A stretch of DNA of 64,000 nucleotides from an uncultured beta proteobacterium (GCA_963781285.1 CAWAFI010000025.1:36296-100295), one strand, 5' to 3'; counted from the stretch's first letter, positions 325 to 21,901 are shown. Notes: generated by a model not told the origin, from the sequence alone. Translations and numbers: made by a program.

Positions 325-1734
325 TCAGGACAGCGCCAGTACCTGATGCCGCCCGCGTGCTAGCGTGCGGATCAGCAGGCGCGTAATGTCGGGATCGAAC
401 TCGGGTCGGGGTGGCGCTTCGATCAGACGGCCTAGCTCGCCTTCATCCGTCGCGGTACCGAGCCAGCACCAGTCGTGGATGACATGGAGGTCGGTGCGCT
501 CGCCGATCTCGGCGCGCTCGCGGATCGCGGCGAGGCCAGCGTACGGCCACGGCGGTACCGCGAATGGCGCCAGCGCCTCGGCGAGCCGCGCATGGTGCGC
601 GTGCACCGACTCTTCGCCGATGCAGGCGCCGGCGCACCGCCGCACCTGCCGCGCGAAACAGGGACCGATGCGTTTCTCGAGCCCCAGCATCTTCCAGCAT
701 AGCGCGTGCTCTGCGGCGAGGTGGCGCAGTGTCTCGCGCGCGGCCCGCTTCGACGTGAAGGGACCGTAGCGGCCCGCCAGTTCGCCGGCTTCGACGCCGG
801 CCGCGGGAACGTAGCGCGGCGGGCCAGGATCTTCCGTCAATTCGAGCACGCCCGCTTCGGCCTTGCGCCGCAGCGCATGGTTGTGCGTCGGAAGCATTGC
901 CTTGACGAGCGTGGATTCGCGCAGAAGCGCCCCGATCTCGCCTGCCGTCTCCTCGAATTCGATGCGGCGGATTTCCGTGGACAGCCGTGCGTCGGTCGGC
1001 GAACGGTAGTCGGACGAGAAATGCGCGCCGACGCGCTCGCGCAGGTTGCGGCTCTTGCCGATGTACAGCGGCAACGCGTTCAGGCCATAGAAGAGGTAGA
1101 CGCCCGGTGCTTCCGGCAGGACATCGAGCGCATCGGGCGCGAGTTGGGGCGGCAGGCTCGGCGTCTTCAAGACGCGCTTGGCCGCCGCCGCGATCGCGTC
1201 GGGCGCAAGTTCGCGGTAGAGCGTCTGCACGAACGCCCACAGCACGCGGGCGTCGCCGAGCGCGCGATGGCGGCCCTCGATCGGCAGCGCGTGCCGCACG
1301 ATCACGCTGTCGAGGTTGTGCCGTTCAGCGTCGGGAAAAAGCCGGCGCGAGAGCTTGACCGTGCACAGCGTCCGTGCGGTGAACGGCCGTCCCTCGCGCG
1401 CGAACGCGTGCTTGAGGAAGCCGTAATCGAAGCGCGCGTTGTGCGCGACGAACACGGCGCCCGCGGTCCGCGCCGCGACCTCGTCGGCGATCGCCCGAAA
1501 CGGCGGCGCATCGCGGACCATCGCGTCGGTGATGCCGGTCAGCGCCTGGATCGCCGGCGGGATCGGGACGCCCGGATTCACGAGCGTGCTCCACTCGGTG
1601 ACCGCCGGCGGTAGGAGGCCCGTCGGGTTGGCGTCGACGCGGACGATGGCGACCTCGGTGATCGCATCGGCCGCAGCGGCAGTCCCCGTCGTTTCGAGAT
1701 CGACGAAGGCGAGGGCGGGCGCGAACAGATTCAT
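325..1734 (-). CDS. Fusion protein: DnaQ-like DEDDh 3'-5' exonuclease domain plus GIY-YIG (UvrC N-terminal / Cho-like) nuclease domain
   Basis: Exo motifs FVDLETTG, VAHNARFDYGFL and HRALGDARVL. GIY-YIG motifs PGVYLFYG...LYIGKSRNLRERV...EIGALLRESTLVKAMLPTHN. Start set at MNLFAPALAFVDLETTG (ATG 1734); the longer ORF extension is Arg/Pro-rich junk. Confidence 0.85.
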   Translation of the reverse strand: MNLFAPALAFVDLETTGTAAAADAITEVAIVRVDANPTGLLPPAVTEWSTLVNPGVPIPPAIQALTGITDAMVRDAPPFRAIADEVAARTAGAVFVAHNARFDYGFLKHAFAREGRPFTARTLCTVKLSRRLFPDAERHNLDSVIVRHALPIEGRHRALGDARVLWAFVQTLYRELAPDAIAAAAKRVLKTPSLPPQLAPDALDVLPEAPGVYLFYGLNALPLYIGKSRNLRERVGAHFSSDYRSPTDARLSTEIRRIEFEETAGEIGALLRESTLVKAMLPTHNHALRRKAEAGVLELTEDPGPPRYVPAAGVEAGELAGRYGPFTSKRAARETLRHLAAEHALCWKMLGLEKRIGPCFARQVRRCAGACIGEESVHAHHARLAEALAPFAVPPWPYAGLAAIRERAEIGERTDLHVIHDWCWLGTATDEGELGRLIEAPPRPEFDPDITRLLIRTLARGRHQVLALS

Positions 1735-1794
1735 GTCCAGCGCAAGGTTCAGCGGGTGGCGCGACGGATCCGGCGGGGCGAACTCGGCAGGGGG

Positions 1795-1823
1795 TTGACT
1801 TCCGAACGCTCGTTCGCTATCGT
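1795..1823 (+). promoter_or_regulatory. Sigma70-type promoter candidate TTGACT-17 nt-TATCGT for the lexA-like gene
   Basis: TTGACT at 1795-1800 and TATCGT at 1818-1823 with an exact 17-nt spacer, 7 nt upstream of the ATG at 1830. Read directly from the sequence. Confidence 0.5.
1803..1816. promoter_or_regulatory. Palindromic operator candidate CGAACGCTCGTTCG (GAAC-N4-GTTC)
   Basis: Perfect 14-bp palindrome lying inside the -35/-10 spacer, in the 95-bp divergent region between the nuclease and the LexA-like gene. Confidence 0.55.
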
Positions 1824-1829
1824 AGCACC

Positions 1830-2405
1830 ATGTCGAACGATCGTTCTTATCTGTCGCTGCTGCAGGATTACTATGCACAGCACCGGGCGCTCCCATCCTA
1901 CGCGTCGATCGGCCATTTACTGGGGTTGAAGTCCAAATCGTCGGTGGCGGCCATGGTGGCACGGCTGAAGCTCGCCGGGTATCTCGACGCCACACCCGAC
2001 AAGCGCCTTGCGCCGACGCGCCGGTTCTTCGCGCGGCCGCTCGCCGAGTCGCCGGTGCACGCCGGCCTCCCCAATCCCGTGGAGGATGCGACGCCCGATG
2101 CGCTGACGATCGACGACTACCTGATCGAGCGCCCGTCGCAGACGGTGCTGATTCGCGTCAAGGGCGATTCGATGATGGACGCCGGCATACTCGACGGCGA
2201 CCTCGTCGTCGTCGAGAAGACGGCGGCGGCCAAGCGCGGCGACATCGTGATCGCCATCGTCGACGGACAGTTCACGCTGAAAACGCTCGACCTCGAGCGG
2301 GGCCGCTTCGTCCTCAAGCCCGAGAACAAAGCTTATCCCGTCATCCGTCCGGAAGGCGAGCTCGAGATCTTCGGCGTGATGGTCGGGCTCGTGCGCAAAG
2401 TGTAA
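1830..2405 (+). CDS. lexA: LexA-family repressor (winged-HTH N-domain plus S24 self-cleaving peptidase domain)
   Basis: N-terminal LSLLQDYY...PSYASIGHLLGLKSKSSVAAMVARLKLAGYLD aligns by eye with the LexA DNA-binding domain. Candidate Ala-Gly cleavage site in VHAGLP. Catalytic Ser in VKGDSMMDAGI and Lys in FTLKTL. Confidence 0.85.
   Translation: MSNDRSYLSLLQDYYAQHRALPSYASIGHLLGLKSKSSVAAMVARLKLAGYLDATPDKRLAPTRRFFARPLAESPVHAGLPNPVEDATPDALTIDDYLIERPSQTVLIRVKGDSMMDAGILDGDLVVVEKTAAAKRGDIVIAIVDGQFTLKTLDLERGRFVLKPENKAYPVIRPEGELEIFGVMVGLVRKV
1834..1846. promoter_or_regulatory. Second GAAC-N4-GTTC palindrome, CGAACGATCGTTC, starting 2 nt after the lexA-like start codon (codons 2-6)
   Basis: Near-identical to the 1803-1816 box, with centres about 31 bp apart. 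It lies in the first codons (ATG TCG AAC GAT CGT TCT). Confidence 0.45.
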
Positions 2406-21049: not shown

Positions 21050-21901
21050 CTAAATGCGCAGGAACGCAACAACGGGGTCGATCTGGTCGCGGGACAGCAG
21101 CGGGGGTGCGTGGCCAACGCCCGCGAATTCAACGAGCGCAGGCTTGGGTCCGCGCGCCCCCATCTGCGCCGCGGTAGCCGCGGAAAGCAGGTCCGACTCG
21201 GCGCCGCGCAGTACGAGCGTGGGGCAGCGGATCGCGTCCCAGAGCCCCCACAGGTCAGGCGGCGCCGCGGACGCGCGGAACGGGACGGCGATGCCCGGAT
21301 CGTAAGCGAGTCCCCAGCGACCGTCGGTACGCTGACGAACGTTGGTGCGCGTCAGATGCTCCCACTGTGCGTCGGTGAGCGGGCCGAAGGGTGCCGAGAC
21401 CGTGCGGATGTACTGCGCAATCTCGTCGTAGGTCGCGAAGGTCGGATCGAGACCGAAGTAGCCACGGATCCGCTCCAGGGCGGCGGGCTCGATCGTCGGC
21501 CCGACATCGTTGACGACCAGGCGCGTGATCGGCGTGTGGGGCAGCGCTGCGATCGTGATGCCAAGAAGTCCGCCCATCGAGGTGCCGACCCAGTCGACGC
21601 AATCCGCACCGCTGCGGGCGATCAGCGCGGTGAGCGTCGTGAGGTAAGTGGGAAAAACATAGTCGTTCGGATCTGCGAGCCAATCACTTTCGCCGCGGCC
21701 GGGCATGTCGACCGCCAGCACGCGATGCGTAGGCGACAGCGCTTCGGCCAGCGCGTCGAAGTCGCGGCCGTTGCGGCCGACCCCGTGGACGCAGATCGCG
21801 ACGCGTGGGTTGCCCGGCTCGCCCCACTCGTAATAGACGACGCGATGAAACCCGTGGGGAGAGAGGCCGTGCAATGTAGAGGTGCGAGGGGGAAACGACA
21901 T
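21050..21901 (-). CDS. Alpha/beta-fold hydrolase
   Basis: HGVGRNGRDFD, nucleophile elbow GTSMGG, and a C-terminal GHAP histidine motif. Start at MSFPPRTSTLHG (ATG 21901). Confidence 0.8.
   Translation of the reverse strand: MSFPPRTSTLHGLSPHGFHRVVYYEWGEPGNPRVAICVHGVGRNGRDFDALAEALSPTHRVLAVDMPGRGESDWLADPNDYVFPTYLTTLTALIARSGADCVDWVGTSMGGLLGITIAALPHTPITRLVVNDVGPTIEPAALERIRGYFGLDPTFATYDEIAQYIRTVSAPFGPLTDAQWEHLTRTNVRQRTDGRWGLAYDPGIAVPFRASAAPPDLWGLWDAIRCPTLVLRGAESDLLSAATAAQMGARGPKPALVEFAGVGHAPPLLSRDQIDPVVAFLRI

Follow-up and report, generated by a model that had tools for sequence, protein, structure and literature searches.

LexA proteins of Beta- and Gammaproteobacteria recognise CTGT-N8-ACAG as their standard box, and the Cheo box of the Firmicutes and Actinobacteria proteins is GAAC-N4-GTTC. 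A noncanonical betaproteobacterial LexA, reportedly described by Sanchez-Alberola et al. in 2015, is said to bind GAACGaaCGTTC and to occur in Sideroxydans lithotrophicus, Gallionella, Nitrosomonadales and Methylophilales. A two-LexA arrangement is reportedly found in Pseudomonas putida, where, in the account of Abella et al. from 2007, LexA1 keeps recA and a second LexA with the operator GTAC-N4-GTGC heads an imuA-imuB-dnaE2 cassette. Among nucleases of the relevant type, cho is SOS-regulated in E. coli. For the SOS networks of Bacteroidetes, regulation of a GIY-YIG/epsilon-like exonuclease (COG0847) has been predicted (PMC8565304), and in Acinetobacter, a genus that lacks LexA, umuDC-type polymerases are, according to the same article, under the control of UmuDAb.

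We analysed a window of 64,000 nt (the whole stretch of DNA presented here) from the metagenome-assembled genome (MAG) of a soil betaproteobacterium of the Casimicrobiaceae (4.93-Mb assembly, 95.6% complete), in which a LexA-like repressor gene, lexA2, and a nuclease gene are transcribed divergently and separated by 95 bp (intergenic 1735–1829). LexA2 matches the noncanonical protein reported by Sanchez-Alberola et al. in its palindrome (GAACG-aa-CGTTC), its host group, its predicted autoregulation and the presence of a box at recA. Like that protein, it is not related to the standard LexA of Betaproteobacteria (LexA2 and LexA1, the canonical-lineage LexA of this genome, are 34% identical). 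It differs from that protein in occurring alongside a canonical-lineage LexA instead of taking its place, in the predicted leaderless lexA2 mRNA with a second operator in codons 2–5, and in the recruitment of a DnaQ-Cho gene as divergent partner. A Bacillus-like box for a betaproteobacterial LexA, of the GAACG-WW-CGTTC type, is already published and SOS control of cho is classical, so that the basic finding is ordinary; what is added here is the lineage-specific wiring.

The arrangement resembles that of P. putida in that two LexA proteins with different palindromes would govern separate regulons, one of them reduced to the repressor and a dnaE2 function. However, the roles appear inverted, as dnaE2 stays with the canonical-lineage LexA1 and recA and repair genes would be held by the second LexA. 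Unlike the cassette-type LexA2 of Pseudomonas and Xanthomonas, lexA2 lies outside any imuA-imuB-dnaE2 cassette and its operator is GAAC-N4-GTTC instead of GTAC-N4-GTGC. The core palindrome is shared with LexA of Firmicutes and Actinobacteria, but the LexA2 box has a fixed inner G/C and an A/T centre (GAACG-WW-CGTTC), and the protein belongs to a different lineage, scoring under the LexA equivalog cut-off and carrying a UmuD-like S24 domain. LexA2 also differs from UmuDAb in its LexA-type winged helix, its box and its predicted recA and repair targets. Overall, we consider it probable that LexA2 is a RecA-responsive SOS repressor of the noncanonical betaproteobacterial LexA family that binds GAACG-WW-CGTTC as a dimer and silences lexA2 and the nuclease gene from shared operators.

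Putative operators of the divergent locus

The features of the locus, numbered from the first base of the window, are as follows.

325–1734, minus strand: nuclease gene, whose 469-aa product joins a DnaQ-type 3'-5' exonuclease to a GIY-YIG nuclease of the Cho/UvrC-N type (stop codon at 325–327)
1734–1732, minus strand: ATG of the nuclease gene (direct reading)
1795–1800, plus strand: TTGACT, the lexA2 -35 hexamer (direct reading, promoter scan)
1803–1816: operator 1, CGAACGCTCGTTCG, core 1804–1815, filling the -35/-10 spacer (direct reading)
1818–1823, plus strand: -10 hexamer TATCGT of the lexA2 promoter (direct reading, promoter scan)
1819–1824, minus strand: candidate -10 TACGAT of a putative nuclease promoter, preceded by TGc
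1830, plus strand: ATG of lexA2 (direct reading)
1830–2405, plus strand: lexA2, encoding a 191-aa repressor in which a winged helix of the LexA type at the N-terminus is followed by a UmuD-like S24 autopeptidase (domain matches)
1834–1846: operator 2, CGAACGATCGTTC, core 1835–1846, within lexA2 codons 2–6 and encoding S-N-D-R-S (direct reading)

All coordinates given in the sequence-only reading were reproduced by direct reading, and the centres of the two operators, estimated there at about 31 bp apart, are 31 bp apart as measured. Two copies of the pattern GAACGNNCGTTC are present in the window, where shuffles give an expectation of 0.25, and the whole 4.93-Mb genome has just 10. Scanning for it with one mismatch returned 288 matches genome-wide and was too noisy, and a position weight matrix was used instead.

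Both boxes are found at fixed positions in essentially all of 80 related Casimicrobiaceae loci, with operator 1 placed at -25 to -27 relative to the ATG in every one of them (80/80). Promoters of the LexA2 family carry GAACG-WW-CGTTC, and the placement of operator 1 recurs in many other families; GAACGWWCGTTC occupies the -35/-10 spacer not only here but also in the 80 relatives and in over 20 further families, which bears out the expectation that the palindromes are conserved upstream of orthologues. Several LexA2 promoters of other families have a second box 21–24 bp downstream, and a counterpart of operator 2 was found in three loci of families in which lexA2 has no nuclease neighbour (L094, L097 and L110).

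The codons under operator 2 are nearly invariant among the 77 unique loci, with TCG in 77, AAC in 77, GAT in 76 and CGT in 77, while position 3 of codon 6, which falls immediately beyond the operator core, is variable (C in 55, T in 16, A in 3 and G in 2) and codons 7–16 vary synonymously. Codons 2–5 are frozen at synonymous positions, and this codon usage shows selection on the DNA itself, over and above that on the protein sequence. Operator 2 would be a compact dual-use sequence, at once coding and regulatory.

Promoters and the nuclease partner

The -35 and -10 hexamers of lexA2 are separated by a spacer of 17 nt and form the sole promoter-like site picked up between 1650 and 1950 by a strict consensus scan. 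The TTGAC of the -35 element is kept in the Casimicrobiaceae loci and in other families. The -10 element lies at -12 to -7 relative to the A of the ATG. Across the 77 unique loci, conservation reaches 90% or more at each of four of its positions (T, A and T from -12 to -10, and T at -7), and a Shine-Dalgarno sequence is absent. Given this distance between the -10 element and the ATG, a leaderless lexA2 mRNA is predicted. The start codon itself was fixed by the cross-family conservation of the N-terminal M..D..YL..LQDYY.

The nuclease matches Pfam RNase_T (DEDDh) at residues 10–165 with 102 bits and Pfam GIY-YIG at residues 211–278. Its residues 201–468 align with positions 26–286 of the 289-position NCBIfam excinuclease Cho profile, with a score of 221.5 bits that is under the cut-off of 367, as the protein is a fusion and not a stand-alone Cho. 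It also matches DEDD-exonuclease PRK07883 models and scores 79.5 bits against TIGR00573, above the cut-off of 71.5. The Exo motifs FVDLETTG, VAHNARFDYGFL and HRALGDARV (DxE, NxxFD and Hx4D) align with the exonuclease domains of DinG, PolC and epsilon, the GIY-YIG domain aligns with the UvrC N-terminal structure 1yd6, and the protein ends at residue 469, lacking the C-terminal endonuclease and HhH domains of UvrC. The partner was thus correctly recognised from the sequence alone as a fusion of an epsilon-type exonuclease and a Cho/UvrC-type GIY-YIG domain. It resembles E. coli Cho (ydjQ) in its near-full coverage of the Cho profile and in its LexA control, which is predicted here, and it shares the N-terminal DEDDh exonuclease fusion with the DnaQ-Cho proteins of Actinobacteria (PRK07883 / Rv2191 type). 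In contrast to these systems, its scores fall below every equivalog cut-off and it would be regulated through a divergent promoter region in common with the repressor gene. Protein identity among the nucleases of the 80 loci goes down to about 62%, and the boxes are nonetheless kept.

On the minus strand, the strict consensus scan of 1650–1950 missed the putative nuclease promoter, for which no recognisable -35 element was seen. The intergenic length ranges from 35 to 289 bp across related loci, and in 14 loci the two ATGs are only 35–50 bp apart, leaving no room for a separate nuclease promoter. In view of this lack of space in many relatives, the nuclease gene is most likely transcribed from the overlapping opposite-strand promoter TGcTACGAT. 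Three of the four conserved positions of this candidate -10 element are common to the plus-strand -10 element, and the other, the A at -6 in lexA2 ATG numbering, is superfluous to the plus-strand promoter and conserved in at least 90% of the loci.

An alternative, which we regard as unlikely, is that the boxes control lexA2 alone, the nuclease having a constitutive promoter that lies within the lexA2 coding sequence or at some other place and its adjacency being mere synteny. Consistent with this idea are the unrecognised minus-strand consensus promoter, the box 2 counterparts in the three loci mentioned above, and the nuclease orthologues outside this clade, at which no SOS box of either type was found (most betaproteobacterial orthologues being boxless). 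On the other hand, where the start codons are 35–50 bp apart any transcript of the nuclease gene has to begin inside the operators or on their far side and to run through box 1, the divergent arrangement is retained in 79 of the 80 loci despite the variation in intergenic length, the A at -6 is conserved, and SOS regulation is established for E. coli cho.

Under the preferred reading, in which both genes are silenced from the shared operators, a LexA2 dimer would bind the palindrome GAACG-WW-CGTTC at two operators flanking the -10 element and start codon of lexA2. Box 1, in the -35/-10 spacer, would exclude RNA polymerase, and box 2 would lie at +5 to +16 of the lexA2 transcript; for the putative nuclease promoter, box 2 would cover the -35 region and box 1 the transcription start, so that bound LexA2 would silence both genes. 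Upon DNA damage, RecA-ssDNA filaments would promote self-cleavage of LexA2 at A78-G79 via the S114/K151 dyad, and the cleavage would derepress all box-carrying genes, namely lexA2, the nuclease gene, recA and the UvrD/PcrA-like helicase genes, together with uvrB and uvrA/ssb, which likewise carry boxes in sister genomes.

Predicted targets of LexA2 and LexA1

The top five sites of the position weight matrix in the genome were lexA2 box 2, two sites upstream of UvrD/PcrA-like helicase genes, one in the recA promoter (G000:C1:109045) and one inside fabH. The last is a perfect box that encodes W-N-D-R-S and was taken as a probable coding coincidence. Low-scoring matches near atpD, an ADP-heptose epimerase-like gene, a ClC channel gene and an ArsR/rhodanese gene were set aside as unlike SOS targets. 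The recA promoter box was found in all of 8 LexA2-bearing Casimicrobiaceae genomes and in neither of the 2 without LexA2, and in the LexA2-bearing relatives recA has a perfect LexA2 box and no LexA1-type box. Further boxes precede uvrB, uvrA/ssb, a helicase gene and mraZ in relatives; uvrB was not found by tblastn in the present assembly (95.6% complete). Each LexA2-bearing genome contains 2–7 exact boxes, compared with 0–1 for the reversed control pattern, and counts exceeded this control only in LexA2-bearing genomes. No box was found within 260 nt of recA in G018, G033 and G057, which belong to other families and have LexA2 as their only LexA, so control of recA is not universal in the LexA2 family.

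The second, canonical lexA whose presence the sequence-only reading had proposed to check was found at G000:C26:171823-172419, with a score of 227.9 bits against TIGR00498. Exact scanning for CTGT-N8-ACAG gave 5 matches in the genome, none of them at lexA1, recA or dnaE2, and the search was therefore turned to a derived LexA1 box. This box, TACCG-N10-CGGTA, was found at lexA1 and dnaE2 only, dnaE2 being on a different contig from lexA2. The LexA1 operator is altered by one base per half-site, and the recognition helix of LexA1 reads SSAEDHL in place of NAAEEHL, making the helix and operator pair a candidate specificity switch from CTGT to CCGT. LexA1 appears to control only itself and dnaE2. 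The coexistence of two LexA proteins as an artefact of MAG binning was rejected, since another genome (G381) carries the two lexA genes together with dnaE2 on a single 1.55-Mb contig.

The proposal that lexA2 and the nuclease gene form a module stood as far as the operator region common to both genes is concerned, while the pairing proved to be confined to part of one family, the Casimicrobiaceae; no nuclease neighbour was found beside LexA2 orthologues of other families. That the module is self-contained did not hold, given the boxes at recA and at the two helicase genes. We regard as improbable a damage-inducible pair in which LexA2 controls just itself and DnaQ-Cho, with the SOS regulon proper left to the canonical LexA. 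The strict joint conservation of the gene pair and both boxes in 79 of the 80 loci, the presence of a canonical LexA and the very small number of boxes in the genome would suit such a pair, but the perfect recA box in 8 of 8 LexA2-bearing relatives, where recA has no LexA1-type box, the boxes at helicase, uvrB and uvrA/ssb genes, the restriction of LexA1-type boxes to lexA1 and dnaE2, and the 69 genomes of the order in which the LexA2 family is the sole LexA all argue against it. Because its predicted sites lie at lexA2, the nuclease gene, recA and other repair genes, LexA2 seems to be a genuine SOS regulator, not the switch of a private two-gene module.

For the Casimicrobiaceae genera holding LexA2, we lean, with some reserve, towards two orthogonal LexA circuits operating without the standard CTGT-N8-ACAG box. 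An acquired UmuD-like LexA2 would have taken over recA, excision-repair and helicase genes and captured DnaQ-Cho via the back-to-back promoter with an operator in codons 2–5 of the leaderless lexA2, and LexA1 would have changed together with its operator and been reduced to itself and dnaE2, the inverse of P. putida. If so, the locus would be a clean natural case of the rewiring of an SOS network upon arrival of a second LexA, with recA and repair genes passing to the newcomer and the resident LexA keeping the mutagenic polymerase while shifting its operator and recognition helix. The nuclease gene, unregulated in sister lineages, would have become damage-inducible merely by its back-to-back position with a repressor gene.

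Identity and distribution of LexA2

LexA2 matches Peptidase_S24 (PF00717) with 94 bits and, at residues 7–58, LexA_DNA_bind (PF01726) with 24.6 bits, which is marginal against the cut-off of 23.7; its N-terminal 75 residues are conserved across the family and match the LexA winged helix. The score against the LexA equivalog TIGR00498 is about 107–108.6 bits, below the cut-off of 110.95 and on par with that against the UmuD model NF007621 (108.8 bits, cut-off 110). The closest solved structure is UmuD (E 5e-24), followed by solved LexA structures at about 1e-15. The predicted cleavage bond A78-G79 (2061–2066) aligns with C24-G25 of UmuD, and the predicted catalytic residues S114 in GDSM (2169–2171) and K151 in FTLK (2280–2282) align with S60 and K97 of UmuD; bond and residues alike also align with the solved LexA structures. 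The domain matches and these alignments agree with the LexA hallmarks first read from the sequence (winged helix-turn-helix, Ala-Gly site, Ser in GDSM and Lys). The same reading had taken the protein for a LexA paralogue with a non-CTGT operator, in line with the GAACG-WW-CGTTC boxes and the low identity to LexA1. Some database records label LexA2 orthologues as 'polymerase V autoproteolytic subunit' or 'prophage repressor'.

It is very unlikely that a different factor, either LexA1 or some unrelated regulator, binds the palindromes and that the 191-aa protein is an S24 protein of UmuD-like or prophage type that takes no part in SOS transcription, an idea that would fit the UmuD-like S24 domain, the marginal LexA_DNA_bind match and the names of some orthologue records, but that is opposed by the way in which boxes follow LexA2, both at recA and in genome counts, by the box in LexA2's own promoter across more than 20 families, by the different conserved box of LexA1, by the conserved N-terminal winged-helix region, and by the neighbourhood of lexA2, which comprises a peptidase gene and a downstream convergent molybdopterin oxidoreductase gene, with no umuC or phage genes beside it. 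An origin of lexA2 from a prophage or other mobile element was likewise rejected in view of this conserved chromosomal context with metabolic neighbours.

Full-length LexA2 orthologues, separated by a clear gap from S24-only matches, were found in 97 of the 401 sampled GTDB Burkholderiales genomes. Canonical LexA is absent from 69 of the 97, where the LexA2 family is the only LexA, and is kept in the present genome and 27 others. Named orthologues come from Sulfuricella, Sulfurirhabdus, Sulfuritortus, Methylobacillus, Chitinimonas, Sulfuricystis, Leeia and a 'Nitrosomonadales bacterium', those of the first four genera and of the last being 48–70% identical over the full length. In the Methylobacillus-type orthologues (L105, L112 and L196), the box is a GTAC-N4-GTAC variant.

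The lexA2 locus and its predicted operators

All coordinates in the sequence-only reading were correct on direct reading of the window, and the LexA-like repressor (LexA2), its divergent nuclease partner and the palindromes are real. The region between the two genes is arranged as follows.

1734, minus strand: start of the nuclease gene, leaving a 95-bp intergenic gap to lexA2
1795-1800, plus strand: -35 hexamer TTGACT, 17 nt from the -10
1803-1816: box 1, CGAACGCTCGTTCG, occupying the whole -35/-10 spacer
1818-1823, plus strand: -10 hexamer TATCGT
1830, plus strand: lexA2 ATG
1834-1846: box 2, CGAACGATCGTTC, within lexA2 codons 2-6

TTGACT-17-TATCGT was the sole promoter-like site in a scan of 1650-1950. 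The sequence GAACGNNCGTTC was found twice in the window (0.25 expected) and just 10 times across the 4.93-Mb genome, the G+C content of which is 65.7%. Related loci were found in Casimicrobiaceae and in MAGs named 'uncultured beta proteobacterium'. Among 80 Casimicrobiaceae loci compared (LexA2 identity 80-93%), the palindromes proposed as operators were conserved, with box 1 at -25 to -27 from the ATG in 80/80 and box 2 at +4 or +5 in 79/80. In the 77 unique sequences, lexA2 codons 2-5 were fixed as TCG (77), AAC (77), GAT (76) and CGT (77), while the third base of codon 6, immediately outside the box 2 palindrome, varied (C 55, T 16, A 3 and G 2) and synonymous variation was present in codons 7-16, a pattern that shows selection on box 2 at the DNA level. 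GAT and CGT are less favoured codons at such high G+C. The -10 hexamer spans -12 to -7, counted from the A of the start codon, there is no Shine-Dalgarno sequence ahead of it, and a leaderless lexA2 mRNA is predicted. In other families, orthologues were either leaderless (box at -26) or had a leader (box at about -48).

LexA2 (191 aa) matched Peptidase_S24 with 94 bits and LexA_DNA_bind marginally (24.6 bits, cut-off 23.7); its score was 108.6 bits for the LexA equivalog (below the 110.95 cut-off) and 108.8 bits for the UmuD model. The nearest solved structure to its C-terminal domain was UmuD (E 5e-24; LexA structures ~1e-15), and this alignment placed the predicted cleavage bond A78-G79 on UmuD C24-G25, with S114 and K151 as the predicted catalytic residues. 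The partner (469 aa) combines a DEDDh exonuclease domain (residues 10-165), in which motifs Exo I-III are all intact, with a GIY-YIG domain at residues 211-278; residues 201-468 cover nearly the full excinuclease Cho profile, and the fusion has the same architecture as the PRK07883 models.

The divergent nuclease gene was present in all 79 Casimicrobiaceae loci having upstream sequence, with protein identity dropping to about 62%. The start-to-start distance between the two genes was 35-289 bp; because it was 35-50 bp in 14 loci, and in one locus (L033) the nuclease ATG directly adjoined the lexA2 -35 hexamer, the nuclease transcript would have to start within or right of the operators. The lexA2 plus-strand motif TATNNTA reads as TANNATA on the opposite strand, the A at -6, dispensable for the plus-strand promoter, was kept in at least 90% of loci, and the minus strand of the window contains an extended -10, TGcTACGAT. 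A strict scan of 1650-1950 returned no minus-strand promoter. We infer a nuclease promoter on the minus strand that uses TGcTACGAT and overlaps the lexA2 promoter, with its -35 region under box 2 and its transcription start under box 1, in which case occupancy of either operator would block both promoters.

Distribution of LexA2 and of its nuclease partner

Of 401 genomes sampled from across the order, 97 encoded a full-length LexA2 orthologue (44-100% identity, E <=1e-46, with a clear gap before S24-domain-only matches). Canonical LexA was absent from 69 of the 97 and present alongside LexA2 in 28, eight of which were Casimicrobiaceae. Other hosts included Sulfuricella denitrificans, Sulfurirhabdus, Sulfuritortus, Methylobacillus, Chitinimonas, Sulfuricystis, Leeia, Thiobacter and a 'Nitrosomonadales bacterium'. 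The lexA2 promoters of these families share the plan TTGAC-n-GAACG(A/T)(A/T)CGTTC followed by the -10, with a second box 21-24 bp downstream in several of them. In Methylobacillus-type orthologues (L105, L112 and L196), GAAC-N4-GTTC in the spacer is replaced by GTAC-N4-GTAC, e.g. GTACGTTCGTAC, which resembles the LexA2 box reported for P. putida. LexA2 and its box are members of an already described family: they match the LexA that Sanchez-Alberola et al. 2015 reportedly described in Sideroxydans, Gallionella, Nitrosomonadales and Methylophilales, a protein with GAACGaaCGTTC as its binding site, no relation to the LexA standard in Betaproteobacteria, and a history of lateral spread.

The nuclease was widespread (208/401 genomes), and no nuclease gene was found within 1.5 kb of LexA2 orthologues outside Casimicrobiaceae. 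Neither a GAAC nor a CTGT box was found within 220 nt upstream of the nuclease in 23 orthologue loci outside the clade, nor at the nuclease loci of two LexA2-less Casimicrobiaceae. The lexA2/nuclease pairing is lineage-specific, and the wiring particular to this lineage consists of coexistence with canonical LexA, a captured nuclease and an operator inside coding sequence.

Two predicted LexA circuits in Casimicrobiaceae

A passage of PMC6595937, citing Sanchez-Alberola et al. 2015, gives CTGT-N8-ACAG as the box of most Betaproteobacteria. The sequence-only reading was right in proposing a LexA paralogue with a divergent operator: a second, canonical lexA was found in the window's own genome, G000 (contig C26, 171823-172419, 227.9 bits), its product, LexA1, is 34% identical to LexA2, and the LexA2 family box is GAACG-WW-CGTTC. 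Coexistence as a binning artefact was rejected since one genome (G381) has both genes on a single 1.55-Mb contig. G000 also encodes a third S24 protein (~120 aa; C7:2727-3089, L003) that lacks a DNA-binding domain and matches LexA and UmuD only weakly.

In genera g1 and g3, both of which bear LexA2, a derived LexA1 box, TACCG-N10-CGGTA, directly follows TATAAT in the lexA1 promoter and replaces the standard TACTG-N10-CAGTA, whereas the LexA1-only genus retained CTGT-N8-ACAG at lexA1. The lexA1 promoter of g4 (G145) had no clear box. High-scoring derived boxes were found at two places only in G000.

C26:172497-172516: lexA1 promoter
C26:160187-160206: 46 nt upstream of dnaE2 (locus L216)

The dnaE2 gene had the derived box in all eight LexA2-bearing Casimicrobiaceae genomes; in G309, for instance, it reads ATACCGTATATATATACGGTA, differing from the E. 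coli consensus by one transition per half-site. The LexA1 recognition helix was SSAEDHL in LexA2-bearing genomes and NAAEEHL, as in E. coli LexA, in the LexA1-only genus. With a derived LexA1 box and a GAAC-type LexA2 box, both circuits therefore depart from the standard box. The predicted division of labour between the two LexAs is the inverse of the one that Abella et al. 2007 reportedly found in P. putida.

Predicted LexA2 regulon

All regulatory assignments here are based on sequence and comparative genomics. When G000 was scanned with a matrix built from the family operators, five sites scored at least 22.

lexA2: box 2
C21:139348: UvrD/PcrA-like helicase gene
C7:89943: UvrD/PcrA-like helicase gene
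C1:109045: recA, inside a TTGCGT...TGcCATGAT promoter
Within fabH: encoding W-N-D-R-S

A frameshift close to residue 190 interrupts the C7 helicase gene (89943-92117), through either pseudogenization or an error in the MAG assembly. The recA box was present in 8/8 LexA2-bearing Casimicrobiaceae and 0/2 LexA2-less family members. In each LexA2-bearing genome exact GAACGWWCGTTC occurred 2-7 times and the reversed control 0-1 times; the two LexA2-less genomes had 2 and 0 exact sites and 1 and 2 control sites. Extra sites precede a helicase gene in G098 and G230 and uvrB in G145, and another lies at the uvrA/ssb divergent pair in G230. Genes with LexA2 boxes form a predicted SOS-type regulon, and the boxes at recA, helicase genes, uvrB and uvrA/ssb contradict the earlier notion of a self-contained module.

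In G230 and G309, GAACGWWCGTTC was also found in the A+T-rich stretch preceding mraZ-rsmH, which heads the dcw cell-division cluster (positions 1501-1512 of loci L179 and L180); the G000 counterpart (C21:32994-33009) has one mismatch. This box may link LexA2 to cell-division control. Three LexA2-only genomes of other families had no box near recA; the predicted regulon therefore varies between families. In family f48, lexA2 lies directly upstream of recA (~100 bp, same strand; G312:C1:4273076-4274739, L161, and G048:C1:1330564-1332213, L162), which suggests a lexA2-recA operon in genomes also retaining canonical LexA.

Upstream of uvrA in G000 (C2, about 21657-21676) we observed a palindrome, TCTTAAGACGTTCGTCTTAG, with another CTAAGACG repeat close by. 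It shares the ACGTTCGT centre with the LexA2 box but has AGAC/GTCT arms instead, and may represent either a degenerate LexA2 site or a target of some other regulator. At C5:16664 and C21:32994, weaker LexA2-like sites are flanked by similar CTAAGA/TCTTAG motifs.
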